Below are positions 27,655 to 55,305 of a DNA stretch of 64,000 nucleotides, piece after piece (the first letter of the stretch is position 1; the number at the start of each line of letters is the position of its first letter). The translations under genes were made by a program, and so were the position numbers. Origin of the DNA: a plasmid; the NCBI RefSeq assembly GCF_054482525.1, contig NZ_JBTHVG010000003.1; one strand, written 5' to 3'. The notes below the pieces were generated by a model that had not been told where the DNA came from, ran no database searches, and saw nothing but the letters and a program-made list of their open reading frames with translations.

Positions 27655-27675
27655 AGTTATGCGCCCGTGAGGGCG

Positions 27676-28860: not shown

Positions 28861-29021
28861 CGGGATACACTGGTTTTAATTACAGGTCATTTTAGCACTC
28901 ATGTACCTGGTTATGAACAGGGTGGAAACAACGAAAAAGGTTGTGAAATCGTTAGGCTTAAGTGAAAAATGATATTAAGATTATCCTTGGCCAGTTGAGG
29001 CCTGTCTAAAGAAGGTTGATT

Positions 29022-29234
29022 ATGTCTGACACAAAGCAGTCTTATTTAATGAAATTCCGTAAGTGTAGTTCGTTCGAAACGCTCGAAAAAGTATTTGAAA
29101 GGTTATGTGAAAAAAACTCGGGTGTCGCCTCTCTTGAAATTTCTGGTGCTTATGATCATCGTAAAGCCGAACTGACAATGAAAAAGTTATATGACAAAGT
29201 TCCTGCGAGTGTGTGGACCTTTGTTCGCGAGTAA
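29022..29234 (+). CDS. Small hypothetical protein
   Basis: GAAGG RBS before the ATG at 29022; about 70 aa. Confidence 0.3.
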   Translation: MSDTKQSYLMKFRKCSSFETLEKVFERLCEKNSGVASLEISGAYDHRKAELTMKKLYDKVPASVWTFVRE

Positions 29235-32343: not shown

Positions 32344-32368
32344 ATTGATCACCGAAGAAGCGTATCCC

Positions 32369-35046: not shown

Positions 35047-35131
35047 AATTTTCCTCGTACGGCTGGTACGGCCAGCAGAAAACGTTGCTGTACAGAAAGG
35101 TGCTGCCCGGAAAGCAGCACCTTTCTGTCTG

Positions 35132-36411: not shown

Positions 36412-36433
36412 GACATCCCCTTAATTAATAAAA

Positions 36434-37072
36434 TTATAAGACCACGTTTACTTCTGGCGGCGGCGGTGGCAGGTCTTCAAGACCGATCACTTCTTTTTTG
36501 CTGGACTCCACTTTCTGACTGCCTACCGAAATGCTCGCACTGACCCATTTAAAGAAAGCTTTAATCGTCGAACTGTCAGCTGTATCGAGCTGAACCACGA
36601 TTTCAGTGATTTCTTTGAGGACGCTGGTATCGGCATCATGCCCGGCTGCACATGCCACAACAACGCCGGTTCTGGCCGCTTTAAAGTCATTCAGGCCTTT
36701 ACGCCAGTCATCATTCGGACTTCCATCCGTCATCAGGAATACAAGGGGACGCCAGTCACCTTTAGTGTCAGCCGTCGTTTTCTGTACTTCTTTGGCAATG
36801 GAGCTGGCCGTCAGGGTAAGCGCTTCGCCAAGAGAGGTGGTGCCGCTGGCTGTTAGTGCTGGCATCTGGAAACTCAGGAGGTCTGTCAGGGGGACTGCCT
36901 GTCGGGCTGAAGAATCAAAGGTGATCACTGACACGTAAGCCGTTTCGAGTGCATACGGATCCTGTTTCAGCGTGGTAAGCAGCGTCTGAACGCCATTCTT
37001 AACCGCTTCGATAGGCTCTCCGTGCATAGAGCCGGACGTGTCGAGTAGCAGATATACGGGTAAGCGTCTCAA
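36434..37072 (-). CDS. terY: TerY-family vWA protein
   Basis: (M)RRLPVYLLLDTSGSM; start moved to the TTG at 37072 with an AAGGAA RBS 7 nt upstream. The ORF-track start at 37153 adds an unsupported N-terminal extension. Confidence 0.75.
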   Translation of the reverse strand: MRRLPVYLLLDTSGSMHGEPIEAVKNGVQTLLTTLKQDPYALETAYVSVITFDSSARQAVPLTDLLSFQMPALTASGTTSLGEALTLTASSIAKEVQKTTADTKGDWRPLVFLMTDGSPNDDWRKGLNDFKAARTGVVVACAAGHDADTSVLKEITEIVVQLDTADSSTIKAFFKWVSASISVGSQKVESSKKEVIGLEDLPPPPPEVNVVL

Positions 37073-37534: not shown

Positions 37535-38002
37535 TCAGGACTTTTTAGCGCTGTATTCTTTTATCAGTTCATCAACGGAGTGCAGAGCCAGCTTCTCTAC
37601 CGCTTCACTTCGGGTCGAGCCACTCAGCGCAGCCAGACGGTCAATTTTTCTTAAAATCCGCATGCGTAGCGATAATGACACGGCTGTTTTTTTATCCTTA
37701 TCGAGTACGACCTTCCCTGTGGACTCACCGGTTTTCAGTTCAGCATTCTGTGCGAGCGCTTCATTCATCCGGCGAAGGGTCTTTTTATCCAGCTGGCCCG
37801 GATTAACGAGATGGTAGGAATGACCTGCCTTGCTGTATTTGATCTCCGCAGAATATGACTCGCGTAGCTCTTTGAGTGCCCGGGTTAATGTCGGCTCTGA
37901 GCATTCCAGACTGGTTATAATGTCGGCAGCGGAAACGGGCTTGCCGGTGCCCAGTAAGTTGGCAAGCTTAAAAATCCGGGCCTGTCTGGTATTTAATTGC
38001 AT
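37535..38002 (-). CDS. terW: TerW, DNA-binding protein of the ter locus
   Basis: 155 aa, HTH-like segment SAADIITSLECSEPTLTRALKELRES; size and position match terW of plasmid and island ter loci. Confidence 0.75.
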   Translation of the reverse strand: MQLNTRQARIFKLANLLGTGKPVSAADIITSLECSEPTLTRALKELRESYSAEIKYSKAGHSYHLVNPGQLDKKTLRRMNEALAQNAELKTGESTGKVVLDKDKKTAVSLSLRMRILRKIDRLAALSGSTRSEAVEKLALHSVDELIKEYSAKKS

Positions 38003-38019: not shown

Positions 38020-39228
38020 TTAAAGGGTTAGTGGTTCAATAGGCTGAAAAATGAAGGTACTGCTCATCTTTCGAATAACCGGGTGATCGCCTAACGCTTC
38101 AACCGGATCAATGTGTTCTAAGCCTGCAAAATTTACTGACGACATCTGGCTGCGACTGCATTTGCAGGACAGGATATACTCATCCTCCAGATAGCCGGTC
38201 CGCTTACTGACCCGTTGCGTAAAGCCTGACACAATCACGTTGTCGAACGGTAGCGTATGTAAAACGATACCGACCAGGCGGAACAAGCAGCCATGGACGT
38301 GGCGGGCATAGTTTTCGCGTACGGCTTTTTGCGTCATGGCTTTTTCCGTCAGCTCCGTGCCCCGGGCATTAACGCCGTAAATCTTATCAGGGAAATCTTC
38401 AATCTCAGCTAAATCAACATCCAGCAGGACTGCTGATAGCTCCGGCTTTACTTCAAATGCAACAAGCGTTTCACGCGGCCATTCAGTTTCTGCCAGCACA
38501 CCCGCCAGGTATGATTCGAAAAACGCGGCGTCTGTCCGGAACTGCTGCCGGGCATCTGCCTGAGCCGTGGCGAGCCGTTTTTCATGTTCTTCAGCCTCAA
38601 ACTTCCAGTTTGCATACTGTTCGGCCCAGGCCGTCCGTTGTTGCTGGTACCGGTGCTGTCGAAGGGTATTCTCACGCTCCACATCAATCAGCTCCTGCTG
38701 CCACCGGCGAAGATTTTCGGCGTGGCGCTCAGCTTTAGCTGATTCCGATTCAAACCATTTACCCAGAAAACTAATGCCTTCGCTCTCGGCAGGCTTTTCC
38801 GGCAATGCAAGATAGTCTGGCTTTTCTGGACGCACCGGTGCCGGAACCTGAAAAGGCGACGTTCTGTTATGCAGGTATACTGCTTCCAGCTCTGCCCAGC
38901 TGATGCCTGTTTTAGGATCCGGCGTCAGCTCGTGAATATTACGGATTGCGGTCACCGCTGACATGAGATCAGCGGCTTCCTCCTCAAGCGCCTGTCTGAG
39001 CCCCGGGTCGGTAGCCGTCCGGTTCCCACCTCCGGAACGCGCGGCCCGATCAAGCCGGGTACGGTAACTCAGCCCGGTACCGGGCAAGCCCAGATTGGCA
39101 TAGGTCCCCCGGCTTCCAAAAGAAACGGAAGCACCTCTCGGCCCGACACTCAGGCTCGGTGCACCGTTACTCAGGTTGAGGCGAACACCAGGAATAATGT
39201 TGATCGACTTTCTGAATCTGAACCCCAT
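38020..39228 (-). CDS. ter-associated protein of unknown function
   Basis: Starts MGFRFRKSINIIPGVRLNLS (DUF4236-like as I recall it); AAGGA RBS; last gene of the biosynthetic operon. Confidence 0.5.
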   Translation of the reverse strand: MGFRFRKSINIIPGVRLNLSNGAPSLSVGPRGASVSFGSRGTYANLGLPGTGLSYRTRLDRAARSGGGNRTATDPGLRQALEEEAADLMSAVTAIRNIHELTPDPKTGISWAELEAVYLHNRTSPFQVPAPVRPEKPDYLALPEKPAESEGISFLGKWFESESAKAERHAENLRRWQQELIDVERENTLRQHRYQQQRTAWAEQYANWKFEAEEHEKRLATAQADARQQFRTDAAFFESYLAGVLAETEWPRETLVAFEVKPELSAVLLDVDLAEIEDFPDKIYGVNARGTELTEKAMTQKAVRENYARHVHGCLFRLVGIVLHTLPFDNVIVSGFTQRVSKRTGYLEDEYILSCKCSRSQMSSVNFAGLEHIDPVEALGDHPVIRKMSSTFIFQPIEPLTL

Positions 39229-39238
39229 TATGATTTCC

Positions 39239-40195
39239 TTAATGATGCTGGGTCACGGTAAGTAATCTGATTCCATCAGCGCTTTGCTCGTTCTGTAACC
39301 CATAAAAACGAGCTCTGTCCAGAATGCCAGCCGCCCAGCGGCGATGTGTGGCGGGTTCACACATTGCTCCCTGCGACTTAAACACGGCCTGGGTAGAGTT
39401 CAGGATCCGCAGAGCGTCAGAATGCTCACCCTGAGTGACCATCAGCGCGTTTTGAATGACCTCTATCTGACCCGGGTGAATGGCCGTTTTCCCAACAAGC
39501 CCATGTGCCATATCAAGAGCCAGCTCTCTGGCCATTACGGCATGATCGTCAATATGCTCACATACGGGCGCGGTCAGGGCAAAATCACGCGGGCCGAAGA
39601 CCGAAACGAGCATTTTGATGACGTAGCCCATCGGGCTGTCATACAGCGTCAGGTCCCGGGGACGGCGAAGCGACACAACGTTCATAAGATCGTTGCCGCC
39701 GATTCGAAGCGCAATAATGCGGTCGTGGCAGGGATGTTCCACCAGACGGGTGGCCAGCTCCCGCATCTGAACCACGTCAAAGACGTCTTCTGTTTCCAGC
39801 GTTGGCATCATGCACAGGTGAGTCCCGCCCATGATATCCCACCATTCAGCTAACGAACTGAGGGTAAATTTCGGCAACACAAACCCGTCGACAGCGGAAA
39901 GATCATAATGCGCTTTTAACCATCTGCCCATTTCGGCATGCCGGGGGCGAATGAACACCAGAGGCCAGTCATTTTTACCCAGGCTATGCATGCTGTTACT
40001 GAGCTCGTGCAGCAGGTGCTCCAGATTTTTGAGGGCGACGGGGATGTCTGCTTCACTGACAGCATCCTCCAGGCAAATCACCAGAGAGCGCAAACCCGGG
40101 ATTTTCCCGTGCAGGACGGCATCAGCAATATCTTCCCGTGTTGCAGGCATGTATAGCGTGGCTCCCAGATTCCAGGGAGAAAGACGATTTTTCAT
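39239..40195 (-). CDS. HpcH/HpaI aldolase / citrate lyase beta-like TIM-barrel enzyme
   Basis: Citrate-lyase-beta-like sequence (…LVICLEDAV…) ; its ATG at 40195 overlaps the stop of the upstream PRTase-like gene (ATGA). Confidence 0.65.
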   Translation of the reverse strand: MKNRLSPWNLGATLYMPATREDIADAVLHGKIPGLRSLVICLEDAVSEADIPVALKNLEHLLHELSNSMHSLGKNDWPLVFIRPRHAEMGRWLKAHYDLSAVDGFVLPKFTLSSLAEWWDIMGGTHLCMMPTLETEDVFDVVQMRELATRLVEHPCHDRIIALRIGGNDLMNVVSLRRPRDLTLYDSPMGYVIKMLVSVFGPRDFALTAPVCEHIDDHAVMARELALDMAHGLVGKTAIHPGQIEVIQNALMVTQGEHSDALRILNSTQAVFKSQGAMCEPATHRRWAAGILDRARFYGLQNEQSADGIRLLTVTQHH

Positions 40196-41274
40196 CAAAG
40201 TACCTTCTTGATAATGGTTACAGCCCGATACTGGCCGAGGGTTCCCCCCATTTCTGTAACAACTATTCCCTTTTCACGAGCAAGCCCTACAAGCAAGGCA
40301 ACGTCCGAGTCGTCAATAGAACGCACAAATACATGGTCCGGTACCCGACGTAATACAGCCCGGGTTGCTTCAGCAATACCGGGTTTTATACGATTGACGC
40401 TGTCCACTTTAAATTCATCGGCCAGGAACGCGATAACGTCGCGACTTGTCTGCCATAAGACCCGGGCTGACTCCGTATTCCAGCTCAGGGGAGCGAGGGA
40501 TGACGGGGTTAACTTCTTACGGAAATGAGCGACGGTATCGACAAGCATCCGGCTGCATTCGAATTCACTGAGATGCTCGCAAACCATGCACCCGTGTAAT
40601 CCTTCAGAGGACCACACTGACCGGGAGATCAGGCCTGACACCGGCGCACCCATGATGCCAAAAGGAATGAGCCAGTCATCATCACTGGCTGCAAGCCAGG
40701 AGCAGCCACAGGGATCGGCCAGGACAACCAGTCGCGGCTGCTCAGGATAGCCCGGGCGATCTTTCAGTGCGCGTACAAGCTCTCCGGTAATTGCGCCTTT
40801 ACCTGTCCATCCGTCAACAAAGACAATACCGCTGGTACCATGCCGCTCTTCAATGACGTCGAGGGCTGCACCGTCAATTCCACGATCCCGGATAATGCTG
40901 ATACCGTAATGCCATGAGGTTTTCCCCATGTCACGCAGGGCCTGGTGCAGCATAACGCCGAGCGGCACGCCAGCCCTGACAAGACTGGCCAGTACAATGG
41001 GCTCATCACCAAAGCGTTTGGCCAGAGCAATAGCGAGCTGTGTGACTTCTTTTGCAAGTCTCTCTGCGCCCCGATCCAGCGCCCGGTGAAACAAATCAAG
41101 ATGCCATTGTGTTGGCGCTGGCTCCTGACTGAGCATGTCCGAATAATGTTTCTTCCCTGACTGAATCAGCTCTTCTTTTTGCTCAACCGGCGTCATCTCA
41201 ATGACAACCGGCTTTAGCAGAAATTCCACGTCACCGGGCTGGTATGAGCCGGTAAATGTGTCATGTGGCTGCAT
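40195..41274 (-). CDS. Phosphoribosyltransferase-like protein (ter-associated)
   Basis: PRPP-binding-like segment GIVFVDGWTGKGAITGEL; ATG at 41274 lies 1 nt after the HAD stop. Confidence 0.55.
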   Translation of the reverse strand: MQPHDTFTGSYQPGDVEFLLKPVVIEMTPVEQKEELIQSGKKHYSDMLSQEPAPTQWHLDLFHRALDRGAERLAKEVTQLAIALAKRFGDEPIVLASLVRAGVPLGVMLHQALRDMGKTSWHYGISIIRDRGIDGAALDVIEERHGTSGIVFVDGWTGKGAITGELVRALKDRPGYPEQPRLVVLADPCGCSWLAASDDDWLIPFGIMGAPVSGLISRSVWSSEGLHGCMVCEHLSEFECSRMLVDTVAHFRKKLTPSSLAPLSWNTESARVLWQTSRDVIAFLADEFKVDSVNRIKPGIAEATRAVLRRVPDHVFVRSIDDSDVALLVGLAREKGIVVTEMGGTLGQYRAVTIIKKVL

Positions 41275-41275
41275 T

Positions 41276-42049
41276 TTAATTTTCTCCAAAAATTCGCTGT
41301 GAAATGGCATCTGCAAACTGACTCTGACGCGGGATGCCAAACCAGCTGCACAGTTTCATAAAACGATGATCGCTCAGGCTGTCGCCCAGGCCAATTACGG
41401 GGAAGACTCCGCGTTCAGCCCGAAGTTTTTCAAGCAGCCATCTGACTGCCAGCCCTTTCTCAACCGGGGTGGGAAGCCAGGCCACGTTATTACTGTTGCG
41501 GTGGATGTAGAAGCCCTCGGTCGGAAACACCGTTTCTATCTCATCTGCAATGGCATTAAGCTCGTCAAGGCGGGTGCTGTCGCGGTGCTTCATCACCATA
41601 TAAACCGCCGTTTCACCGTATTCGAAGTTCAGCCTTGCCCAGGCATTGATCCCTTTTGCGTCCATCATTTCAGTGATCAGACGCTGCATCGATGTCAGCT
41701 TTTCCTGGTAGGGAGCCAGCTGGCCAAGCATATGGGCCTTCCACTCCTCGTCGGGTTTGCCTTCAGGCGTGAGAATGACGGCCCCGTGCGTGGTGATTGC
41801 CCAGGAGTGGAAAGGGATCCGGACGCGGCTGATTTCTTCAGTTCCCCGGGCGGTAACAGGTATGAGTTCAGCCTGCTCCAGGAGCCAGTCCACCAACATG
41901 GACTGTTCTTCCGTCATAAAGCTTCGTGGATTCAGGGTGCGATCAACGGCACCGGTACGGAATGGCTCCAGGGCCAGCTCGTCCACCATTTTACGACGGG
42001 TCTGAAAGAGCGTGTCGTCAAGGTCGCTCAGAACAACGGGTTTATTCAT
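41276..42049 (-). CDS. HAD-superfamily hydrolase
   Basis: Motif I VVLSDLDDTLF; start moved to the ATG at 42049 (MNKPVV...), which overlaps the 3' end of the upstream PRTase gene. Confidence 0.8.
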   Translation of the reverse strand: MNKPVVLSDLDDTLFQTRRKMVDELALEPFRTGAVDRTLNPRSFMTEEQSMLVDWLLEQAELIPVTARGTEEISRVRIPFHSWAITTHGAVILTPEGKPDEEWKAHMLGQLAPYQEKLTSMQRLITEMMDAKGINAWARLNFEYGETAVYMVMKHRDSTRLDELNAIADEIETVFPTEGFYIHRNSNNVAWLPTPVEKGLAVRWLLEKLRAERGVFPVIGLGDSLSDHRFMKLCSWFGIPRQSQFADAISQRIFGEN

Positions 42050-43184
42050 AGGTAACAATCTCCACGACGGGCGCAACCTCAGCCAGGGCTTTAAGAAGCT
42101 GCGTGTCAATACTTTCTGCGGGTGTCTCAGTACACACAAGAATACGGTCAAACTGCTGGTGGGCGACGTTATAGACAAAATTGGGGATGCCCAGCCCGTA
42201 GTTATCCGTAAAGGAAATGGCGGACTCAATGGCATAACCAACGGCGATAGGGGAGCGGGTGGTCGAACCATAAAGTGCCTGTGCTCCGGCAGCTTCGAGC
42301 CGTTCAGCAAGCAGGAACGGCTCCCAGACGAATTCCCCGGTCCCGAGAACCAGAATACGTTCCCCCTTGCGGACGGAGACCTCATGGCCGAGATCGGCCG
42401 CAGGTGCGAGCATCCCCAGTCGACCCCAGGACTGTTTTCCCAGGATGTCCCATTCTCCGCGTGAAGTTACGTTGACTTTCGGCATGTCCGGGACAGGTGC
42501 ATCAGGTAATGGGGTCCATCCCCACTGACCGCTTACAAGCGAAACCGAAGTGACGGGCAAGGATGTGCGCTCCGACAGGGCGTTGCTACTCCAGTCGGTA
42601 AGCGTAACGGCGATAACCTGTTCAATATGTTGAAGCTTGCCGGTATTACGCAGGGCAGAAAGCAGGTTAATAAAGGTATTACCGGTGGTTGCCTCGTCAT
42701 CAATCAAAACCAGCGTTCGTGCGTTGGTAACACGACGTCTTTTCTCTTCATCATCTGGCAGATAGATCAGATGATCGGTGGCGTGGCTGTGTTCTTCCTT
42801 GAACTCGCAAAGTAACGTGCCATCAACCGGGTGACGGGTAGAGGTCAGATAGACAGATTCACGATGCTGGTGGCGCACTTCATCAAACACACCGGCCCCT
42901 AGCCCAACGGCGGTTTCAGCCATACCGATAAAAAGTACGGGCCCTGTCAGCGTTGCGGGGAACTGGCTGGCAAGCTGTCTGTAGGCCTGCCGCATGACTG
43001 AGGGTGGCACGGGAATGTGCCTGCCGAGTACTTTGCTGACAAACAGAAAGGCGCGTTTCGGGTTACGTCTTTCAGCGATATCAAACAGGTCATCGAGCGA
43101 AACATCACCCTGGTCGCGGGTTACCTGTATCGTACCGCATGAGAGGGTACGGCGATAAATCATATCTTCGAGGGTATCAGACAT
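42042..43184 (-). CDS. Phosphoribosyltransferase (PRTase)
   Basis: Canonical PRPP-binding motif TLVLIDDEATTGNT; ATG at 43184 lies 9 nt after the ATP-grasp stop. Confidence 0.8.
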   Translation of the reverse strand: MSDTLEDMIYRRTLSCGTIQVTRDQGDVSLDDLFDIAERRNPKRAFLFVSKVLGRHIPVPPSVMRQAYRQLASQFPATLTGPVLFIGMAETAVGLGAGVFDEVRHQHRESVYLTSTRHPVDGTLLCEFKEEHSHATDHLIYLPDDEEKRRRVTNARTLVLIDDEATTGNTFINLLSALRNTGKLQHIEQVIAVTLTDWSSNALSERTSLPVTSVSLVSGQWGWTPLPDAPVPDMPKVNVTSRGEWDILGKQSWGRLGMLAPAADLGHEVSVRKGERILVLGTGEFVWEPFLLAERLEAAGAQALYGSTTRSPIAVGYAIESAISFTDNYGLGIPNFVYNVAHQQFDRILVCTETPAESIDTQLLKALAEVAPVVEIVTYE

Positions 43185-43193
43185 AAACACGCC

Positions 43194-44252
43194 TTAATTC
43201 AGATGGTTAGAGAGTGATTCCGGGTAAACGATGACATCTGTGATGGATCTCACTGCAACCGGAGAAAAGGTATTTCTGGCGCTCTGGATCACCGCATCTT
43301 CAGACATCAGACCGAGCTTAAAGGCAGCAAACAACCCGGGAAGGTTCACCCCGCTGTGAAGGGTATAACCCACCCCGCCTGACGGACGCATGTTGGTTTC
43401 AAGCAGCACCGGGTTGCCATTCACATCGTTTCGCGTCTGAACATTCACCAGCCCGTCGGCCTTCATAACCCGGGCGCAGTCACAAGCCAGTTCCCAGGCG
43501 CTTCCTTCGTTTACCAGATACTGGATAGCCCCTTCCTTACGGCGTCCCACGGCTGCGAGTATTTCGCCCTTATCCGCGAGGATATCGACGGAAAATTCCG
43601 GGCCTGGCAGGTACGGCATCAAAACAAGGGGTTTAAACGACTCAGAAGCCGATGCTGCTGCAATATACTGTTGCGGACTGACCAGACGATGTTCGGGATG
43701 ATTAAAGACGGCCATGGGCGAAGCACTGTCATCAAAGCGCCAGAATCCCATGCCATAGATACCCGTCACCGGCTTCACGCATACCGGGCTGTCCGAGAAC
43801 GGCGGGGCCGCGAGGTGCGTCTTTAATTCTGCCAGCGTATTCACCCGCCAGGACGGTACGACCGGGAGCCCGTTTTGCTCCATAAACTGAGCAAAAGTAA
43901 CTTTTTCGTCAGCCAGAGTTAACCAGTCGACGCCTGTTGCACCGGTAGTAAGGGTGGCTCCGGTCGATTCAATGGCTGAACGGTGTTCTTCAAACCACTG
44001 GCTGTTACGGCCAGTATGAATATGGTGGATGCCGTAGGTCTGAATGGTTTCCTGAATAAACTGAAGACGTTTTTGAGGATCTTCAGGTTCAGTCAAAGAA
44101 TAATCGGCAACGGAAAGAATTTCATGTCTTTCGTTACGGTGGGAGGCAAATACGGTAATAGCAAAATTATTTTTTTGTGCAAATGATTTTACCCCCTGAA
44201 TAATATCTCGCTGGGAGGACAAACCTTCCATAAACCAAATTTTCTTGTTCAT
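43194..44252 (-). CDS. ATP-grasp enzyme
   Basis: ATP-grasp-like core with Gly-rich and acidic segments (…VLLETNMRPSGG…); first gene of the operon, divergent from terZ. Confidence 0.7.
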   Translation of the reverse strand: MNKKIWFMEGLSSQRDIIQGVKSFAQKNNFAITVFASHRNERHEILSVADYSLTEPEDPQKRLQFIQETIQTYGIHHIHTGRNSQWFEEHRSAIESTGATLTTGATGVDWLTLADEKVTFAQFMEQNGLPVVPSWRVNTLAELKTHLAAPPFSDSPVCVKPVTGIYGMGFWRFDDSASPMAVFNHPEHRLVSPQQYIAAASASESFKPLVLMPYLPGPEFSVDILADKGEILAAVGRRKEGAIQYLVNEGSAWELACDCARVMKADGLVNVQTRNDVNGNPVLLETNMRPSGGVGYTLHSGVNLPGLFAAFKLGLMSEDAVIQSARNTFSPVAVRSITDVIVYPESLSNHLN

Positions 44253-44575
44253 TTTTTTTAATTATCCGGAACGCCATGCAAATTTATGATTGAGAAGTGA
44301 GTCTATGAGTGTCTACGCTACATGTCAATCATAATATGATTAATAACTTCAGTGGTTATGGAGTGCGTCAGTGTTTTTTTTAGTGCCTTATAACGTATTG
44401 ATATTTAAATTAAAAATAGAAAAATGAACACCATGAAAAGGATTTATTTTTGTGTTTTTGAAGAAAACTACCAAAATTTCCCTTGTCAGAGAACTTCATC
44501 ATGATATGATTTTCTTCGTCAGTTACTAAATATACCTTTGATTGTCTCGGTCATTACCATTTTAAGGAATAAAAC

Positions 44576-45157
44576 ATGGTTTCATTAAGTAAGAACCAGA
44601 CGGTATCACTCAGCAAAGAATCTTCAGCATTAAGCCAGCTTCAATTCGGTCTCGGTTGGGATCCGGTTAAGAAAAAAGGTCTTCTTGGAGGATTGTTTGG
44701 AGGCAACGACTCAATCGATCTCGATGCTGGCTGCGTATTAATGGACAGCACCGGTAAAACAATTGACACCATCTGGTTCCGCAAACTGGAATCCACCTGC
44801 GGCGCTGTTGTGCACAGTGGCGATAACCTGACCGGTGAGGGTGACGGTGACGATGAGGTGATTAAGGTCAACCTCTCCCGACTGCCTGCAAACGTTGAAT
44901 ACCTGGCGTTTACGGTAAACAGCTTCCGTGGTCAGTCGTTCAATGACGTCGAAAACGCGTTCTGCCGCGTTGTCGATCAAACCGGCAAAGAGCTGGCTCG
45001 CTACAAGCTGACTGAGCAGGGCTCACATACCGGGATCGTTATTTCTTCGCTGCGCCGTAATAACGGCAACTGGGACTTTACCGCCCTTGGCCATGCCTGT
45101 CGCGGCCGCACAATTGACGATATGCACTCCGATATCGTTTCAGCGGTTATTCGCTAA
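44576..45157 (+). CDS. terZ: Tellurium resistance protein TerZ
   Basis: TerD domain ([13 protein letters not shown]), 193 aa, first gene of the Z-A-B-C-D-E order. Confidence 0.9.
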   Translation: MVSLSKNQTVSLSKESSALSQLQFGLGWDPVKKKGLLGGLFGGNDSIDLDAGCVLMDSTGKTIDTIWFRKLESTCGAVVHSGDNLTGEGDGDDEVIKVNLSRLPANVEYLAFTVNSFRGQSFNDVENAFCRVVDQTGKELARYKLTEQGSHTGIVISSLRRNNGNWDFTALGHACRGRTIDDMHSDIVSAVIR

Positions 45158-46314
45158 TGAACCTGACGCCGGGGGGCAATGCCCCCGTTCCAGCCCAGGA
45201 GTTGCGGGTCCGGATCACCTCGGGCGGCCAGGTGGATGCTTCGGCGTTTCGCCTGTATGCCGACGGGAAGGTGCAGGGTGATGCGGACATGGTGTTTTAT
45301 GGTCAGCCACGTAACGATGATGGTACCGTCAGCCTGGTCAGTGAAGGCCAGTACTCAACCTTTACTGTCGCGCTCAACCGGCTGAAACCTGATGTCCAGA
45401 AAATTGCGTTCACCGTGACCTGTGACGGTGGGCAGACGGTGTCCGGTCTTCGTAATCTTTCCATCGACGTGGAGCAAGGGGCTACCGGCCTGGTTAGCGG
45501 CAGTGTCGAACTGAGCGGCCGTCAGGAAGCAGCCTTAATTCTGGGTGAATTTTACCGTCGTAATAATGACTGGAAATTCCGCTTCGTTGCGCAGGGGTTC
45601 AACGGTGGACTTAAACCGCTGGCAGAGCATTTCGGCGTAAATATTGCCGACGAACCGGCTCCCGCAGCCCCGACTCCTCCGGTTGTAACCCCTCCGCCAG
45701 TTGAGACAAAAATCAGCCTGAGCAAGGTATCGCTGACAAAAGAGAAGCCTGCAATCAGCCTGACCAAACGGGATAACTTCGGTGAAATCCGGATCAACCT
45801 GAACTGGCACCGGGGCAGCGGCAAATCAGGCTTTGCAGGCATGTTCGGCTCCAAAGGAATCGACCTGGATCTGGGGGCCTTTGTTGAGCTTCAGGACGGG
45901 TATAAATCGGTCATTCAGGCGCTCGGTAATGCATTCGGTAATTATCGCGATGAACCGTATGTTCAGCTCAAGGGCGATGACCGGACGGGTGATGTATCAG
46001 ACGGCGAGTGGCTGCATATCAATGGACGTGAATGGAAGCATATCCGCGAAGTGCTGATTTACGCCTTTATTTATGAAGGTGTTCCCAGCTGGGACAAGAC
46101 TGATGGTGTGGTCACCATTCATGTGCCGGATCAACCGCCCATTGAGACCCGCCTGACCGAAGGTGAAAACCGTCGCACATTGTGCGCCATTGCCAGACTC
46201 GTAAACGAAAACGGCGCAATTAAAGTCGAGCGAATTAACCAGTACTTCAAAGGCCAGGACGAAATGGACCGGGCATTTGGCTGGGGATTTCGCTGGAGCG
46301 CCGGTTCTAAATAA
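45157..46314 (+). CDS. terA: Tellurium resistance protein TerA
   Basis: 385 aa with two TerD-like domains; its start overlaps the terZ stop (TAATG). Confidence 0.9.
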   Translation: MNLTPGGNAPVPAQELRVRITSGGQVDASAFRLYADGKVQGDADMVFYGQPRNDDGTVSLVSEGQYSTFTVALNRLKPDVQKIAFTVTCDGGQTVSGLRNLSIDVEQGATGLVSGSVELSGRQEAALILGEFYRRNNDWKFRFVAQGFNGGLKPLAEHFGVNIADEPAPAAPTPPVVTPPPVETKISLSKVSLTKEKPAISLTKRDNFGEIRINLNWHRGSGKSGFAGMFGSKGIDLDLGAFVELQDGYKSVIQALGNAFGNYRDEPYVQLKGDDRTGDVSDGEWLHINGREWKHIREVLIYAFIYEGVPSWDKTDGVVTIHVPDQPPIETRLTEGENRRTLCAIARLVNENGAIKVERINQYFKGQDEMDRAFGWGFRWSAGSK

Positions 46315-46336
46315 CACAGCAACAAAGGAAACAGGT

Positions 46337-46792
46337 ATGAGCTTTTTCGACAAGGTAAAAGGTGCCATTAACTCTGGCCGGGACGAACTGACCCGCCAGG
46401 TTGGTCGTTTCAAAAACAAAAAATTTATGCACGGCACCGTTGCTGTATGTGCCCGTATTGCCGTATCGAGTGACGGCGTGAGTTCGGAAGAAAAGCAGAA
46501 AATGATGGGCTTTCTTCGCTCTTCAGAAGAGCTGAAGGTCTTCGATACCAATGAGGTGATCGAGTTCTTCAATAAACTGGTTTCAAGCTTCGATTTCGAT
46601 GTTGAAATCGGCAAGGGCGAAACCATGAAATACATCCTGGCGCTGAAAGATCAGCCTGAGGCCGCTCAGCTGGCCTTACGTGTTGGTATTGCCGTTGCGA
46701 AAAGTGACGGTAACTTCGATCAGGACGAGAAACTGGCCTCCCGCGAGATCGCTATCGCGTTGGGCTTCGACCCGGCTGAATTTGGCCTCTGA
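46337..46792 (+). CDS. terB: Tellurium resistance protein TerB
   Basis: 151 aa beginning MSFFDKVKGAINSGRDELTRQ; start moved to the internal ATG with an AGGAAACAGG RBS. Confidence 0.9.
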   Translation: MSFFDKVKGAINSGRDELTRQVGRFKNKKFMHGTVAVCARIAVSSDGVSSEEKQKMMGFLRSSEELKVFDTNEVIEFFNKLVSSFDFDVEIGKGETMKYILALKDQPEAAQLALRVGIAVAKSDGNFDQDEKLASREIAIALGFDPAEFGL

Positions 46793-46814
46793 TCCACATC
46801 CCTAAGGGTAAAAT

Positions 46815-47855
46815 ATGGTTTCCACACACATCGGCTTCCCGACTGAAACGGTCATTGTTTTCATTGCGCTTTCAGTCGGTGCCATCTTTATTGACCTGTT
46901 TATGCACCGTGATGACAAGCCCATTTCCCTGAAGAGTGCGGCGCTCTGGTCCGTATTCTGGGTTGTGGTTGCGATGGCATTTGCCGGTTTCCTCTACATC
47001 CACCACGGTGCTGAGGTTGCCAGCCTGTTTGTAACGGGTTATGCGCTGGAGAAAGTGCTGTCGGTCGACAACCTGTTTGTCATGATGGCCATCTTCTCCT
47101 GGTTCGCCGTTCCTGATCGTTACCGCCACCGTGTTCTCTACTGGGGGATCATTGGTGCCATCGTCTTCAGGGGCATCTTTGTCGCCATCGGTACGAGCCT
47201 GCTGAGTCTGGGGCCGTATGTTGAAGTTGTCTTCGCTATCATCGTCGCCTGGACGGCGGTCATGATGCTTAAAAGCGGTGATGACGATGATGAAATTGAG
47301 GATTATTCCCAGCATCTGGCTTACCGCATGGTTAAACGCTTCTTCCCTATCTGGCCGAAGCTCAGAGGTCATGCTTTCCTGCTTAACCAGAAGGAAGTGG
47401 ATGCCGAACTGGCGAAACCAGAAAACAGCGATGTCACCATTGGCCGTGGTAAAAAGGCGGCGCTGTATGCGACCCCTCTGTTCCTGTGTGTGGCCGTGGT
47501 TGAACTCTCGGATGTTATGTTTGCGTTTGACTCGGTACCGGCAATCATTGCCGTCAGTCGTGAACCGCTTATCGTCTATAGTGCCATGATGTTTGCTATC
47601 CTGGGCCTGCGTACTCTGTACTTTGTCCTTGAAGCACTGAAACAGTACCTGGTTCATCTGGAGAAGGCCGTTATCGTGCTGCTGTTCTTCATCGCGGCAA
47701 AACTGGGCCTGAATGCGACCGATCACATTTGGCATCATGGTTACAGCATCGCGGCGACAACCAGCCTGTATGTTGTACTGGGTGTTTTGGCGCTGGGCAT
47801 TCTCGCAAGCGTCATGTTCCCGGGCAAACCTGAATCTGAGGAAAAGGGGAGCTGA
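46815..47855 (+). CDS. terC: Tellurium resistance membrane protein TerC
   Basis: 346 aa, multiple TM helices, acidic loop DDDDEIED. Confidence 0.9.
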   Translation: MVSTHIGFPTETVIVFIALSVGAIFIDLFMHRDDKPISLKSAALWSVFWVVVAMAFAGFLYIHHGAEVASLFVTGYALEKVLSVDNLFVMMAIFSWFAVPDRYRHRVLYWGIIGAIVFRGIFVAIGTSLLSLGPYVEVVFAIIVAWTAVMMLKSGDDDDEIEDYSQHLAYRMVKRFFPIWPKLRGHAFLLNQKEVDAELAKPENSDVTIGRGKKAALYATPLFLCVAVVELSDVMFAFDSVPAIIAVSREPLIVYSAMMFAILGLRTLYFVLEALKQYLVHLEKAVIVLLFFIAAKLGLNATDHIWHHGYSIAATTSLYVVLGVLALGILASVMFPGKPESEEKGS

Positions 47856-47903
47856 TCCCCTGAAGTGTTAACCTGAACAATTACTAATCGAAGAGGTTAT
47901 TTT

Positions 47904-48482
47904 ATGAGTGTTTCTCTTTCCAAAGGCGGGAACGTCTCCCTGAGTAAAGCAGCTCCGTCAATGAAAAACGTCCTGGTGGGCCTTGGCTGGGATGCGCGTT
48001 CAACAGACGGTCAGGACTTTGACCTGGATGCTTCAGCATTCCTGCTGGCCGCAAATGGCAAAGTGCGCGGCGATTCAGATTTCATCTTCTATAACAACCT
48101 GACGTCATCTGACGGTTCCGTAACCCATACCGGTGATAACCGTACCGGTGAAGGTGATGGTGATGATGAATCGCTGAAAATTAAACTGGACGCCGTCCCG
48201 TCTGATGTTGACAAGATCATCTTCGTTGTCACTATCCATGATGCTCAGGCTCGTCGCCAGAGCTTTGGTCAGGTATCCGGTGCGTTTATTCGCCTGGTCA
48301 ATGACGATAACCAGACTGAAGTCGCTCGCTACGATCTGACCGAAGATGCGTCCACTGAGACTGCCATGCTGTTCGGCGAGCTGTATCGCCACAATGGTGA
48401 GTGGAAATTCCGCGCAGTGGGCCAGGGTTATGCTGGTGGTCTGGCATCTGTATGTGCTCAGTACGGCATTAACGCGTCCTGA
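47904..48482 (+). CDS. terD: Tellurium resistance protein TerD
   Basis: 192 aa, [15 protein letters not shown]...[13 protein letters not shown]. Confidence 0.9.
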
Positions 48483-48549
48483 TCGAAAAGTAACTTTTCA
48501 CCCGGGGCTGTTAATGCAGCCCTCATTCAACTGTTTGCAGGAGCTAAAA

Positions 48550-49125
48550 ATGGCAGTTTCTCTCGTAAAAGGCGGCAACGTATCTCTGACCAAAGAAGCA
48601 CCAACCATGAATATCGCTATGGTTGGCCTCGGCTGGGATGCCCGTGTAACTGACGGTCAGGCTTTTGACCTGGACGCTTCCGTGTTCGCAGTAGGCGAAG
48701 ACGGTAAAGTGCTGTCAGATGCGCATTTCATTTTCTTCAATAACAAAACCAGCCCTGATGGCGCGGTAGAGCACCAGGGCGACAACCGTACCGGTGAAGG
48801 CGACGGTGACGATGAGCAGGTCAAAATCGATCTGACCAAAGTCTCAGCAGATATCAAAAAACTGGTGTTTGCCGTTACCATCTATGATGCAGAAGCGCGT
48901 AAACAAAACTTCGGCATGGTGAGCAACAGCTTCATGCGCGTTTACAACAACGACAACGGCACGGAAATTGCCCGTTTCGATCTGTCTGAAGATGCCTCAA
49001 CCGAAACCGCTATGGTCTTCGGTGAACTGTATCGTCATGGCGCTGAGTGGAAGTTTAAAGCTGTCGGTCAGGGCTTTGCCGGTGGCCTGGCGGCTCTTGC
49101 CTCCCAGCACGGCGTTAACATCTAA
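48550..49125 (+). CDS. terE: Tellurium resistance protein TerE
   Basis: 191 aa, [15 protein letters not shown]...[13 protein letters not shown]; start moved to the internal ATG at 48550. Confidence 0.9.
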
Positions 49126-49142
49126 AACAACGCTGAATCATA

Positions 49143-49167
49143 CCCCGGCAATGCCGGGGTTTTTTTT
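49143..49167 (+). terminator. Rho-independent terminator after terE
   Basis: CCCCGGC-AAT-GCCGGGG followed by T8. Confidence 0.8.
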
Positions 49168-49553
49168 GGTTGCGATCCGCTTTCAGGAGGGAGTAGTAGA
49201 AAGGGGACTGGAAATTTCAGAAAGCAGGTCATGTTAATTCAGACCTGAGCCTTTTAAAGGCAGGAAACGGATTTATCTCTGGTTGCTGGTTAAAGCCGGT
49301 ATTCCGTGCCTTTTATCAACAGAATGCCCCTCTGATATATGTTACTTTTGCGGTTTATGAAGGAACGGGATCTGGAACATAAGATACCCGGTCAATCAAA
49401 ATTCCAGTTCAACAGGTATAGAAACTTCAGCGTGATGAAATATGGTGTCACACCATATATACGCCTCACCAGAAATCCAGCGTCCTGAACTAAGCCTGGG
49501 GAACATATATAAGCGCTGCGCTTTAAAAATAATCAAAAATCAGGAGAGTTAAT

Positions 49554-50795
49554 GTGAATCTACAATCCGGACAAAACATACCGCTTCAGCAATCTGCGAT
49601 CAGGCTGAATCTTCAGTACCCTGCCAAATCCGGCTTTAAAGGCGAACCCGATACCTGCCTCTTCCTGCTTAATGCTCAGGGAAAGGTAACCGGCGATTCT
49701 GACTTTATCTTTTATAATAATCTGTCTTCTCCTGAAGGGGCAGTAAAGCTCGTTACCGGTTCTCAGCAGTCCAGCATTGAGATAGCACTGGATCGTGTTC
49801 CGGCGAACGTCAGTAAGATTGCGATCACCGTTGTCATTGATGGTGAAGATACTATCAGTGGGCTCAGTTTATTGAGCATTCAGGCTCCTGGTATCGCTGA
49901 TTTTCAGGCTGAGACTCAGGGCCGCAGTGAGAAAGCAATCATCCTGGGTGAAGTATATCGGCACAATGGCGCCTGGAAGCTTCGTGCGCTCGGGCAGGGT
50001 TTCAACGGTGGTCTTGAGCCTCTGGCCATTAGCTTTGGCGTTGATGTCGCACAGCCAGCTCCGCAGCCAGCAAAGCCCGCTCGTATCAGTCTGGAAAAGA
50101 AACTTGAAACCAGATCTCCGCGCCTCGTAAGCCTCGCTAAAAAAGCCTCGGTCAGTCTCACTAAAAATAAACTGGACACCCTTGAGGCAGCGGTTGCATT
50201 TGTACTTGACGCATCCGGCTCAATGAGTGGCCAGTTCAGTAAGGGCAACGTTCAGTCTGTGCTGGACCGCATCGCCGTTCTTGCCGCCCAGTTCGACGAC
50301 GACGGTGAAATGGATGTCTGGGGATTTGGAGAGAAGCACAAGAAGTATCCAAACGTCACACTGGACAACCTGGACACATATATTCAGTCCATTCGCGGGT
50401 CTGGAAAGCGTTCAGCCTGGGAGAACCTGCCGGGACTTGGTGGGACAAACAATGAGCCCCCTGTGATGGAAGAAATTGTCGACTACTTTAAGGACTCGAA
50501 AATCCCGGTATATGTTGTATTTATTACCGATGGCGGGATCAGCAAGACCCGGGCGATTAAAGATGCAATCCGGCGTTCTGCCAACTACCCCATCTTCTGG
50601 AAGTTTGTCGGCCTGGGTGGTTCAAGCTACGGTATCCTCAAAAATCTGGATGACTTTACTGACCGCCGGGTTGATAACACCCACTTCTTTGCCATGGATG
50701 ATTTCGGTTCGATCAGCGATGAAAAGTTATATGATAATTTACTGGAAGAATTCAGACCGTGGATCGATGAAACAAAAAGGTTAGGCATCCTGTAA
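49554..50795 (+). CDS. terF: TerF (TerD domain fused to vWA domain)
   Basis: N-terminal TerD-like domain plus C-terminal vWA ([17 protein letters not shown]); GTG start with a GGAGAG RBS; 413 aa. Confidence 0.8.
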
Positions 50796-50885
50796 TACGC
50801 ACAGTTTTCGCATGGTTAAAGGAGCTCTACAGCAGCTTAATACTGTAGAGCCTTTGTTCACTGGAAATCGTACAGGGAGGAGCAT

Positions 50886-51017
50886 ATGGACCGCATCAAG
50901 TACCTGAAATGGATAGCTGAAGAATCACCAACTGATGATGAAATCGACAACTACGATAGTATCATTAGTCGGGGCGCAGAAAGGGCCGAGAAGGTTCAGT
51001 TGTCTTTAAGACGTTAA
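50886..51017 (+). CDS. Small ORF (43 aa)
   Basis: Strong GGGAGGAG RBS 5 nt upstream of the ATG; not in the ORF track because of its size. Confidence 0.3.
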   Translation: MDRIKYLKWIAEESPTDDEIDNYDSIISRGAERAEKVQLSLRR

Positions 51018-51357
51018 TATACGGGAGTTTAAATGTTCGCAGAAATCAAAGATAATTATTCGTTAGGTGGATAAAGAAAGGTTGCCATTACCAGCTTTCG
51101 ACGAGTCGAAAATAAAAACCTTATTTATAGTGACAGGGAGTATGAGCTGACGCTTGCCAATGGAACAATAATTAAAAATGTACTTAGAAAAGAAGAGTGG
51201 GAACTGTTAGAAAGCAATTCAATTAAGGTTATATTATAACGAAAATATATTTACAGTTTTGGATAGGTTTCAAACGAGTCCGGACATTTGTACCTGAAGT
51301 ATCTGACATTACAGTTAAGTGACGATTATGTCAGCACGTCTGTTGCTGGCAGCTTAG

Positions 51358-51639
51358 CTATCGGTCTAAAAGCTGATCCATTAATAATTCTTCGTAAAGC
51401 CCAGAGGTATCGGGCTTTATTACAATATCCGTTATTTCGAAGCGTTCAAGTACAAATTGCAGATATTCCGGAGTAACGTAGTAGGGATCAGGTTCAGCCA
51501 GATTAGTATAGAGTGGGTCTTCTGCTGCATTAATGTCATAATCAATGCACATATGAAACCACTGCAAAGGTGGATCCCAGCCTAACATCACCTGAACAAT
51601 TCCCTGATTGCTTTTCACCTCATACCAGTGCTGGCTCAT
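51358..51639 (-). CDS. Hypothetical protein
   Basis: 93-aa ORF in a run of three small minus-strand ORFs. Confidence 0.3.
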   Translation of the reverse strand: MSQHWYEVKSNQGIVQVMLGWDPPLQWFHMCIDYDINAAEDPLYTNLAEPDPYYVTPEYLQFVLERFEITDIVIKPDTSGLYEELLMDQLLDR

Positions 51640-53678: not shown

Positions 53679-53975
53679 ATGATCAATAATGATTACCCGT
53701 TAAACACGCTCAACCAGCTGCGTCCCTTGCTCATTGGTTTTCGCAAGGCGAATGGCCTGACGCAAAAAGACCTGTCCGAAAGGTTAGGCGTCACTCAACA
53801 GACATACTCACGTCTGGAAGCCAACCCTGCCAGTGCGAGCATTGAACGGCTATTCAAGGTGTTTTCCATCCTGGGCGTAAAAATCAGCTTCTCCTCGGCA
53901 ACCACCTCTTCAGAGAGGAAGCAGACGGAAGAAATGCTTAAATCAAACTCACCTGCACGACAGGAGGATTGGTAA
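53679..53975 (+). CDS. hipB: HipB-like XRE-family antitoxin
   Basis: HTH segment GLTQKDLSERLGVTQQTYSRLE; stop 4 nt before the hipA start. Confidence 0.75.
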   Translation: MINNDYPLNTLNQLRPLLIGFRKANGLTQKDLSERLGVTQQTYSRLEANPASASIERLFKVFSILGVKISFSSATTSSERKQTEEMLKSNSPARQEDW

Positions 53976-53979
53976 CGAT

Positions 53980-55305
53980 ATGAGCCGGAAACAGCAACGT
54001 CTGGTAATTTGGATGAACGGCATCAAAGTCGGGTACTGGGAAAAAAGCAAAGGGGTAGACAGCTTAGAATACCTTCCTGAATGGGTTGCTGACGAACAGG
54101 GAAGGCCGCTGTCATTGTCCCTTCCTTTTACTCCCGGGAACCAGGTCTGGCGTGGAAATGTGGTACGTGACTATTTTGATAATTTACTGCCGGACAGCGA
54201 AGGCATACGCAGACGTCTGGCAATGCGTTACAAGGCCGATAGCCTGGAGCCTTTTGATCTGCTGACGGAGCTGGGAAAAGACTGCGTGGGCGCGATACAG
54301 CTGCTTCATGACGGAGATGAACCCACTGATTTATATTCCGTGAAGTATCACCCGCTTACTGAATCAGAAATTGCGGCAACTTTGCGTAATACCACGGAGA
54401 CATTGCTACCGGGCAGGCCAGAAGATAACGACGACTTACGTTTATCTATTGCCGGTGCTCAGGAGAAAACAGCCCTACTGTGGCATGAAGAACGGTGGTG
54501 TATGCCGGAGGGTAATACACCAACGACGCATATATTCAAGCTACCGCTCGGACTTGTGGGGAACATGAAAGCCGACATGAGCTCGTCGGTTGAAAATGAA
54601 TGGCTCTGCTCGGTACTTCTCGGCCAGTACGGGCTCCCCGTGGCAAGAACGCAGATTGCTCACTTTGAAGATCAGAAAGCGCTGGTGGTAGAACGTTTTG
54701 ACCGAAAATGGTCAGGAGACGGACAATGGATCATTCGTTTACCCCAGGAGGATATGTGTCAGGCCCTGGGCGTTTCGCCATTACGAAAATATCAGGCGGA
54801 CGGCGGGCCAGGTATATCGGAAATTATGGAGGTTCTGAGTAATTCAGACCGTGCTGAGCGTGACAAAGCGCAGTTTTTTATGACGCAGATAATTTTCTGG
54901 ATGATGGCCGCAACAGATGGCCACGCTAAAAATTTCAGTATTTCTATTGGGCCACAGGGACGTTATCACCTTACACCAAACTATGATGTGTTGTCGGCAT
55001 GGCCGGTGATCGGTCATGGGAACAATCAGATATCCTGGCAGAAGTGCAAACTGGCGATGGCCGTACGTGGCAGTAGCAACTATTACCAGATATATCGAAT
55101 ACAACGACGCCACTGGATCAGGCATGGTGAGATAACCGGCCTGAGTAAACAGCAGACAGAGGCGATGATAGAGGAAATCATCGCCAGAACCCCGGGTGTC
55201 ATTGAACGTGTTAGCGGGCTTCTTCCGGACCAGTTCCCCCAGCAGCTTGCGGAAAGTATTTTTGATGGAATGAGGCAGCAATGCAGGCGCCTGGCTGAGA
55301 AATGA
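53980..55305 (+). CDS. hipA: HipA-family Ser/Thr kinase toxin
   Basis: 441 aa with HipA-like blocks SIAGAQEKTALLWHEERWCMP and GHAKNFSI. Confidence 0.85.
   Translation: MSRKQQRLVIWMNGIKVGYWEKSKGVDSLEYLPEWVADEQGRPLSLSLPFTPGNQVWRGNVVRDYFDNLLPDSEGIRRRLAMRYKADSLEPFDLLTELGKDCVGAIQLLHDGDEPTDLYSVKYHPLTESEIAATLRNTTETLLPGRPEDNDDLRLSIAGAQEKTALLWHEERWCMPEGNTPTTHIFKLPLGLVGNMKADMSSSVENEWLCSVLLGQYGLPVARTQIAHFEDQKALVVERFDRKWSGDGQWIIRLPQEDMCQALGVSPLRKYQADGGPGISEIMEVLSNSDRAERDKAQFFMTQIIFWMMAATDGHAKNFSISIGPQGRYHLTPNYDVLSAWPVIGHGNNQISWQKCKLAMAVRGSSNYYQIYRIQRRHWIRHGEITGLSKQQTEAMIEEIIARTPGVIERVSGLLPDQFPQQLAESIFDGMRQQCRRLAEK

Follow-up and report, generated by a model that had tools for sequence, protein, structure and literature searches.

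The region from 44253 to 50795 of the 64,000-nucleotide plasmid sequence analysed here (the window) is best explained as a tellurite-resistance determinant of the R478 type ('ter-type 2') carried by an IncHI2 conjugative plasmid. Together with the regulatory and mechanistic proposal set out below, we hold this reading with a probability of about 0.88. The terZABCDE-terF copy is intact, ordinary and already known, and does not depart from the known ter system. It is not new because identical copies are found in hundreds of sequenced plasmids.

Gene content and relatives of the ter locus

Seven open reading frames with zero internal stops were found on the plus strand. They encode proteins of 193, 385, 151, 346, 192, 191 and 413 aa (TerZ, A, B, C, D, E and F), each exactly the size given by the first-pass annotation, which had called the locus complete. 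Its description of the order and sizes as canonical is borne out by gene order, domain content, identical annotated loci and equal lengths in R478. All Pfam matches of the seven proteins were above gathering scores (E=2e-20 to 3e-88), and the domain set was as expected, with a TerD fold in TerZ, TerA, TerD, TerE and TerF, the TerB and TerC domains in their namesakes, and a vWA domain in TerF. Shine-Dalgarno sequences precede all seven intact genes.

The first gene, terZ (44576-45157), encodes a TerD-domain protein that has kept the acidic motif, and its stop overlaps the start of terA (45157-46314) by 1 nt. TerA carries an N-terminal TerD domain without the acidic motif, and its C-terminal half matches TerD weakly. 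The product of terB (46337-46792) carries a TerB domain and matches PDB 2JXU (E=1e-84), and terC (46815-47855) encodes an integral membrane protein of the TerC/Alx family, scoring 360 bits on the family model TIGR03718 against a cut-off of 246; a sequence search for a solved structure of TerC found none. TerD (terD, 47904-48482) has a full TerD domain with the acidic motif and matches PDB 2KXT (E=3e-122), and terE (48550-49125) encodes a paralogue with 65% identity to TerD. Finally, terF (49554-50795) begins with GTG and combines a TerD domain without the acidic motif with a vWA-TerF-like domain whose MIDAS sequence is DASGS. The Ca-binding motif is present in TerD, TerE, TerZ and TerX and absent from TerA and TerF. 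Note that the starts of terB and terE were taken from RefSeq, the longest open reading frames at both starting farther upstream.

The linkage of the ter genes to terW, terXY and a divergent biosynthetic operon is present. This operon (38020-44252, minus strand) is ordered ATP-grasp (ATPgrasp_Ter), PRTase_2+TRSP, a hypothetical gene whose HAD-like (S6PP) match is weak and sub-cut-off, StiP+PELOTA, C-C_Bond_Lyase and DUF4236. It is followed on the same strand by terW (37535-38002), which encodes 155 aa with a weak HTH match, and by terY1 (vWA), terX (TerD domain), terY2 (vWA) and terY3 (vWA + TerY_C) at 34006-37072. Beyond the terY and terX genes lie a phosphatase and a kinase, which complete a TerY-P-like vWA/PP2C/kinase triad.

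The genetically characterised relative is R478 of Serratia marcescens (NC_005211.1, 74967-81187), in which the genes have the same order and lengths and are spaced alike, and which shares the 428-bp terE-terF spacer, both palindromes described below, and the upstream terW, terY/X and biosynthetic genes. DNA identity is 97.7% across 20.9 kb. The R478 Ter proteins are of equal length and 97.8-100% identical, with 18 amino-acid substitutions (TerZ 3, A 1, B 1, D 2, E 2, F 9) and an identical TerC. Collinearity stops at 50931, 136 bp beyond terF, at a breakpoint where R478 has an open reading frame of 151 aa and the lineage of the window one of only 43 aa. The 6543-bp ter stretch is 100% identical in hundreds of plasmids (Salmonella and E. 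coli; IncHI2); the matches comprised 700 records at at least 99% identity and 1231 with at least 80% coverage, and the one matching plasmid checked for type was IncHI2A/MOBH/MPF_F. In pCombat11I9-1 (NZ_CP021727.1, IncHI2A) the ter stretch is likewise 100% identical, with no detectable difference, and the window is collinear with this plasmid over 48 kb (14670-62795) at 99.98-99.99% identity. The ter loci of IncHI2 plasmids have been named 'ter-type 2' (Nguyen et al. 2021, PMC8193136).

A ter match was also found in 1023 of 5426 complete E. coli genomes, the majority at 95-99% identity (708 records). The chromosomal ter islands of E. coli (706 places found) hold the same operon as the plasmid copy; these islands, ter-types 1, 3 and 4, for example SpLE1 of O157:H7 Sakai, are prophage-like integrative elements, whereas the copy described here resides on a conjugative plasmid (Nguyen et al. 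2021, PMC8193136). The ter region of Klebsiella pneumoniae virulence and resistance plasmids (IncFIB/IncHI1B) agrees with the window copy in its genes, in the divergent biosynthetic operon, in the two palindromes and in having a terminator stem past terE. Its DNA identity to the window copy is about 78%, its terE-terF spacer measures 88 bp instead of 428 bp, and its intergenic region is largely unalignable outside the conserved palindromes and sites.

TerC belongs to the same family (TIGR03718) as TerC/Alx/YkoY proteins of non-ter contexts. Many members of the TerC/Alx family are controlled by the yybP-ykoY riboswitch, which had no Rfam match anywhere in 30000-56000. Unlike these riboswitch-controlled genes, terC here stands fourth in an operon regulated by a protein.

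Divergent promoters, palindromes and the terE-terF spacer

The regulatory region that separates terZ from the divergent biosynthetic operon (44253-44575) has a GC content of 30%, compared to 51% for the ter genes and 54% for the upstream operon. The first-pass annotation had placed here an AT-rich gap of 320 bp, described as a divergent promoter region and separating terZ from a divergent biosynthetic operon. Its AT-richness stands, as does the separation, given that the operon starts at 44252 on the minus strand, and two divergent promoter-like sites are indeed present; the length is corrected to 323 bp. The site of the biosynthetic operon (44300-44328, minus strand) reads TTGACA-17-TAGACT (10/12), with its -35 at 44328-44323 and a weak -10, TAGACT. 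The terZABCDE site (44483-44510, plus strand) reads TTGTCA-16-TGaTATGAT (10/12), with an extended -10 at 44505-44510. In an alignment of five lineages, both hexamers of the minus-strand site fall in invariant columns; in the plus-strand site the -10 is invariant and the -35 partly conserved. The whole promoter scan returned 13 sites against 9.0 +/- 3.1 in shuffles, with no enrichment. Consequently, both promoter calls depend on conservation and not on the scan.

Each promoter is accompanied by a palindrome. Candidate TerW operator 1, ATCATAATATGAT (44328-44340), abuts the -35 of the minus-strand promoter, and candidate operator 2, ATCATGATATGAT (44498-44510), overlaps the -10 of the terZ promoter. 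The pattern ATCAT-N3-ATGAT occurs just twice in 64 kb, against 0.07 copies expected, and both copies lie in the divergent gap. Both are invariant across the five lineages, including Klebsiella, where intergenic identity is 67-75%. They agree with the published description of a TerW-protected palindrome within the intergenic region between terZ and the biosynthetic operon (PMC7843439). By analogy with the TerW binding described for E. coli KL53 and Pectobacterium, the two palindromes are most likely TerW operators, and TerW is the likely regulator acting on both. No third TerW-type palindrome with at most 2 mismatches was found near terY1/terW or upstream of terF, and a relaxed pattern was no more frequent than chance; in Pectobacterium, by contrast, a third site has been reported near terY1. 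An inverted repeat (44284-44298/44320-44334) was considered as an extra regulatory site and was not counted, because conservation of its left arm does not extend to Klebsiella.

An intrinsic-terminator-like hairpin, ACCCCGGCAATGCCGGGGT followed by T8 (49142-49168, plus strand), lies 17 nt past terE. The hairpin proper (49142-49160) has an 8-bp stem with 7 G-C pairs (-19.9 kcal/mol, z = -3.5), and four lineages share this stem unchanged but differ in the loop. The strong terminator described by the first-pass annotation therefore exists, but its place is between terE and terF instead of the locus end, and terF would thus form a separate unit behind a spacer of 428 bp. When 30000-56000 was scanned with Rfam (E<=1) for riboswitches and sRNAs of the leader and spacer, nothing exceeded its gathering score; the single match, anti-hemB (24.8 bits, gathering score 49.5), is no more than the terE terminator hairpin and was discounted.

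In the non-coding spacer beyond the terminator (49169-49553), a perfect and unique palindrome of 19 bp lies at 49440-49458, and the Shine-Dalgarno sequence of terF, AGGAGA, at 49542-49547. Scanning of the terE-terF spacer on the plus strand revealed no promoter-like site for terF, and none of the small open reading frames in its 428 bp (25-49 aa) was convincing. The possibility that it is a remnant of a 216-aa open reading frame found at the same position in an IncHI1A plasmid was discarded when the alignment gave no real similarity. A hairpin past terF (50824-50858, plus strand), the only one there and weaker than the terE terminator, has a 9-bp stem and a 10-nt loop (50824-50851) followed by CTTTGTT. 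Other lineages have hairpins at the same place, but these are non-homologous.

A proposed mechanism and competing explanations

Recent papers back the first-pass statement that the ter mechanism is still unresolved (PMC8115787, PMC12054061). In the scheme we propose, the promoter with its -10 at 44505-44510 would drive terZABCDE as far as the hairpin at 49142-49160, with terF as a separate downstream unit, and the back-to-back promoter with its -35 at 44328-44323 would drive the biosynthetic operon. TerW, a wHTH protein whose gene lies at the distal end of the divergent operon, most likely binds the two palindromes and co-represses both operons. Such co-repression fits an old finding, as summarised in PMC4633105, that terZA is lethal to E. 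coli and terW protective.

The family literature suggests that TerC, as a member of the TerC/Alx metal-transporter family, would be the membrane core and TerB its cytoplasmic partner. Those TerD-fold paralogues in which the Ca2+-binding motif survives (TerD, TerE and TerZ) may be soluble metal-binding subunits, and the motif-less TerA and TerF, together with the MIDAS vWA domain of TerF, accessory or scaffolding parts. Jointly these proteins would build a membrane-linked stress-response complex, and a TerC-centred complex has indeed been proposed (PMC8115787, PMC12054061). Counting against the biochemical side of this model, TerC is argued not to behave as a Zn/Mn efflux protein (PMC12054061). 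Activity of the complex would raise the tellurite MIC, inhibit some phages and confer resistance to pore-forming colicins. By analogy with studied ter systems, resistance to tellurite probably arises as a by-product of a wider stress response (membrane, metal or oxidative).

The phage and colicin phenotypes admit another reading, in which ter serves first of all as an immune system against phages and colicins, sensing envelope or membrane perturbation, a nucleoside-like product of the divergent operon being the signal and tellurite incidental. As summarised in PMC12054061, transposon insertions in R478 served to map its resistance to tellurite, its inhibition of phages and its resistance to colicins, and insertions in ter abolish all three together. 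A Klebsiella terC mutant yields larger plaques, but the Klebsiella phage effects are modest (PMC12054061). The ter genes adjoin the TerY-P-like triad, relatives of which act as stand-alone phage defence (PMC11090510), their linkage to the PRTase/ATP-grasp operon is conserved, and tellurite is scarce in nature. However, a PADLOC-DB 2.0 scan gave no defence-system match for the TerZ, TerB, TerF, TerX or TerY proteins, with weak matches for the kinase and the TerW HTH and no others, and a domain search of the seven Ter proteins found no nuclease, pore-former or NADase effector domain. We regard a primarily immune function as rather unlikely. It overlaps with the stress-response determinant favoured here and does not exclude it.

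A still more inclusive proposal would unite the complex of TerC, TerB and TerD paralogues, the operon for a nucleoside-like compound, the two-operator TerW switch and the TerY/phosphatase/kinase triad in a single signalling system that senses membrane damage or infection. This idea for the ter region is said to have been put forward previously by Anantharaman et al. in 2012. We consider it doubtful, and the present copy neither adds to it nor detracts from it.

Direct detoxification, with TerC exporting or excluding the oxyanion or the complex reducing tellurite to Te(0), appears improbable. In its favour, the family of TerC (TIGR03718) is one of membrane proteins for metal transport, terCDE in Yersinia pestis brings back the reduction of tellurite and part of the resistance (PMC4633105), and deletion of terC lowers resistance to Te, Zn and Mn (PMC12054061). 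But no reductase or oxyanion-pump domain was found in the seven Ter proteins, the efflux argument cited above applies here as well, and detoxification leaves the pleiotropic phage, colicin and oxidative-stress phenotypes unaccounted for. That in this host the locus is a silent passenger without phenotype, fully repressed by TerW through operators that overlap or abut both promoters or co-selected with drug-resistance genes as proposed for IncHI2 plasmids (PMC8193136), is very improbable given seven intact genes that each have a Shine-Dalgarno sequence, strong conservation (100% across hundreds of plasmids and just 18 amino-acid changes from R478) and the tellurite resistance of the IncHI2 ter-type 2 strains surveyed (PMC8193136).

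Implications

Annotation of the ter locus marks the window as IncHI2 plasmid backbone. From its sequence, the plasmid carrying this copy is predicted to confer tellurite resistance, which would be of use in the selective plating of IncHI2-bearing strains. The one offering of this particular copy is a clean example of a two-operator divergent promoter layout. The real role of the ter system is a general question and a clinically relevant one, as the locus has been associated with infection and gut fitness in Klebsiella and with EHEC. If the single signalling system were true, tellurite resistance would be a laboratory side effect, and an immune or stress pathway would have gone unrecognised in a locus that is very common on plasmids.

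Identity, distribution and surroundings of the ter locus

Seven + strand open reading frames, none with an internal stop, lie within 44576-50795 and encode TerZ, TerA, TerB, TerC, TerD, TerE and TerF of 193, 385, 151, 346, 192, 191 and 413 aa. These are exactly the sizes proposed in the first-pass annotation, with terB (46337) and terE (48550) computed from RefSeq start sites. Translation starts with ATG in six genes and with GTG in terF, a recognizable Shine-Dalgarno sequence precedes most of them, and the terZ stop and terA start overlap by 1 base. Every defining feature of an R478-type ter determinant that can be tested by sequence was found, as the label of a canonical and well-known cluster had implied. 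Hundreds of Salmonella, E. coli and Shigella plasmids carry the 6543-bp stretch at 100% identity; 2469 plasmid records match this query (1231 covering at least 80% of it), as do 1023 of the 5426 complete E. coli genomes, on plasmids and chromosomes both. One identical copy whose typing was checked is IncHI2A, MOBH, MPF_F and conjugative. The current IncHI2A plasmid pCombat11I9-1 (NZ_CP021727.1) is collinear with window 14670-62795 at 99.98-99.99% identity, and R478, the Serratia marcescens IncHI2 plasmid (NC_005211.1) that served to define these genes, is 97.7% identical across 20.9 kb. Its Ter proteins have equal lengths and are 97.8-100% identical, TerC being identical. Judged by sequence, the locus is the already known R478-type ter determinant, identical to hundreds of database entries; Nguyen et al. 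2021 class IncHI2-borne ter operons as 'ter-type 2' (PMC8193136).

The divergently transcribed biosynthetic operon claimed upstream of terZ is present on the - strand at 38020-44252 and encodes six proteins: ATPgrasp_Ter, PRTase_2 + TRSP, a hypothetical protein whose HAD-like (S6PP) match is weak and below cut-off, StiP + PELOTA, a C-C bond lyase and a DUF4236 protein. Beyond it lie terW, terY1 (vWA), terX (TerD domain), terY2 (vWA) and terY3 (vWA + TerY_C), followed by genes for a PP2C phosphatase and a protein kinase. The window consequently holds the full canonical ter region described for R478 and E. coli KL53.

Several other features were observed in passing. Collinearity with R478 and with comparison locus L003 ends at 50931 and returns at about 51581 (window 50886-51580); R478 carries a 151-aa hypothetical ORF after terF, whereas its counterpart here has 43 aa (50886-51017), which together indicate a replacement or indel directly downstream of the ter locus. 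At 53679-55305 (+), a HipB-like HTH gene (98 aa) precedes a HipA-family toxin gene (441 aa); in the RefSeq annotation of the identical plasmid this pair is a type II toxin-antitoxin system. That annotation also places IncHI backbone genes at 25497-29234: 25497-26459 encodes a Tus-like replication-terminus-binding protein, 27676-28851 (-) a tyrosine recombinase and 29022-29234 an Hha/YmoA-family regulator. The part of the window with the lowest GC (33-38%) is 17888-22894 (+), where five consecutive genes encode hypothetical proteins of about 300 aa each; among these, paralogy was detectable only for the last two (27% identity, E=2e-37).

Putative divergent promoters and candidate TerW operators

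The gap between terZ and the divergent operon, announced as AT-rich and 320 bp long, measures 323 bp (44253-44575) with 30% GC, against 51% in the ter genes and 54% in the upstream operon. We aligned it across five lineages: the window, one R478-like IncHI2A and one IncHI1A plasmid, and two plasmids of Klebsiella, the latter two matching at only 67-75% identity. A few invariant blocks stand out amid otherwise diverged sequence, and two of them (44328-44340 and 44498-44510) are the palindrome ATCAT-N3-ATGAT, which has no other match in the 64-kb window (chance expectation 0.07). The first copy abuts a - strand TTGACA (44328-44323), invariant in the alignment, with an equally invariant TAGACT (44305-44300, -) 17 bp beyond. 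The second contains TATGAT, the -10 element (with an extended TG) of a promoter-like site on the + strand that has TTGTCA (44483-44488) as its -35 element. Each of two back-to-back promoters would therefore be overlapped or abutted by one operator-like copy, in keeping with the divergent promoter region that had been claimed. Note that these promoter calls rest on conservation, since the scan overall showed no enrichment over shuffled sequence (13 sites versus 9.0 +/- 3.1).

This two-operator layout has already been noted in one paper (PMC7843439). Kravchenko et al. 2021 single out a palindrome as the best-conserved part of this regulatory region in ter loci and place two copies between the divergent operons; in that account it also coincides with the TerW-protected region of Valkovicova et al. 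2011 (PMC7843439). The terW product encoded here (37535-38002, -) gave weak HTH matches. In the summary given in PMC4633105, Whelan et al. 1997 found terZA lethal to E. coli without terW, which a repressor acting on the two palindromes would explain.

The terE terminator and the position of terF

The strong terminator claimed for the locus is indeed present, but it lies between terE and terF. This terminator-like hairpin (49142-49160), 17 nt past the terE stop, has an 8-bp stem with 7 G-C pairs, a 3-nt loop and eight subsequent T (-19.9 kcal/mol, z = -3.5); across four lineages its stem and T run do not change, the loop varying in sequence and length. Sitting directly after terE, it would close the terZABCDE unit and leave terF behind it. 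Only a weaker hairpin follows terF (50824-50851, z = -2.2).

The terE-terF spacer (49126-49553) comprises 428 non-coding bp, compared with 88 bp in Klebsiella (L006 12913-12999); in the IncHI1A plasmid a 216-aa ORF (L004 12925-13648) fills it. The terF of that plasmid is 86% identical to the one studied here, as opposed to 97% for terZ-terE. Spacer variability and this drop in identity point to the terE terminator as a recombination joint, and terF thus appears to behave as a separate module. The promoter scan returned no + strand promoter-like site for terF in the 428-bp spacer. About 100 bp upstream of terF lies a perfect 19-bp palindrome, ATATGGTGTCACACCATAT (49440-49458), unique in the window, identical in the R478-like lineage and absent from Klebsiella, whose spacer has only 88 bp; a role as a regulator site for terF is possible.

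Ter proteins and the function of the system

Pfam matches far above gathering cut-offs assign TerD domains to TerZ, TerA, TerD, TerE and the TerF N-terminus, a TerB domain to the third gene product, a TerC domain to the fourth and a vWA-TerF-like domain, with the MIDAS sequence DASGS, to the TerF C-terminus. TerC also belongs to the TerC/Alx family (NCBIfam TIGR03718, 360 bits versus a cut-off of 246). Sequence searches matched TerD to the solved Klebsiella structure 2KXT (E=3e-122) and TerB to 2JXU (E=1e-84), and found no solved relative of TerC. In an alignment of the region's six TerD domains, the acidic motif GDN(R/L)TG(E/A)GDGDDE, reported as the Ca2+-binding site in the TerD structure paper, is kept in TerD, TerE, TerZ and TerX; TerA and TerF have a deletion at that point in their N-terminal domains. 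TerA residues 175-385 (window 45679-46311) carry no Pfam domain above cut-off, and this half matches nearly the whole TerD model at a sub-cut-off E=0.013. It reads as a weak second TerD-like domain, and its stretch GDDRTGDVSDGE resembles the Ca-binding motif missing from the N-terminal domain.

The analysis directly establishes which locus this is and how its signals are laid out; we infer its transcription plan and the TerW step. PMC12054061 summarises the effect of insertions in R478: tellurite resistance, phage inhibition and colicin resistance are all lost when terZ, terC or terD is hit, and are not abolished by insertions in terE and terF. The proposed core of a membrane-linked complex is TerC with TerB or TerD (PMC8115787, PMC12054061), and the Klebsiella operon is induced by tellurite, Zn and Mn (PMC12054061). 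On these published grounds, we favor a membrane complex centred on TerC, with TerD-fold subunits that bind Ca2+/metal. TerW would hold it in check through the two operators, and the complex would provide a general stress response (envelope, metal or oxidative), a high tellurite MIC being an incidental outcome.

The locus could also be a dedicated anti-phage system, a reading that overlaps with the stress-response one. At its far end, the ter region carries a - strand TerY-P-like triad: the vWA + TerY_C gene (34006-35046), the PP2C phosphatase (32369-34006) and the protein kinase (30844-32343; helix-hairpin-helix protein in RefSeq). Related triads are stand-alone phage defences (PMC11090510). 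However, PADLOC models matched none of the Ter proteins tested, an effector domain is not evident, and the triad (30844-35046) gave no system-level PADLOC match. For direct efflux or reduction of tellurite by the ter products, a matching enzyme domain is absent, and the pleiotropy would be left unexplained. That the locus is a silent passenger is unlikely, given its conservation.

Overall, the added value of the analysis is modest: a terminator position that would set terF apart as its own unit, the two-operator layout, and a few passing observations.
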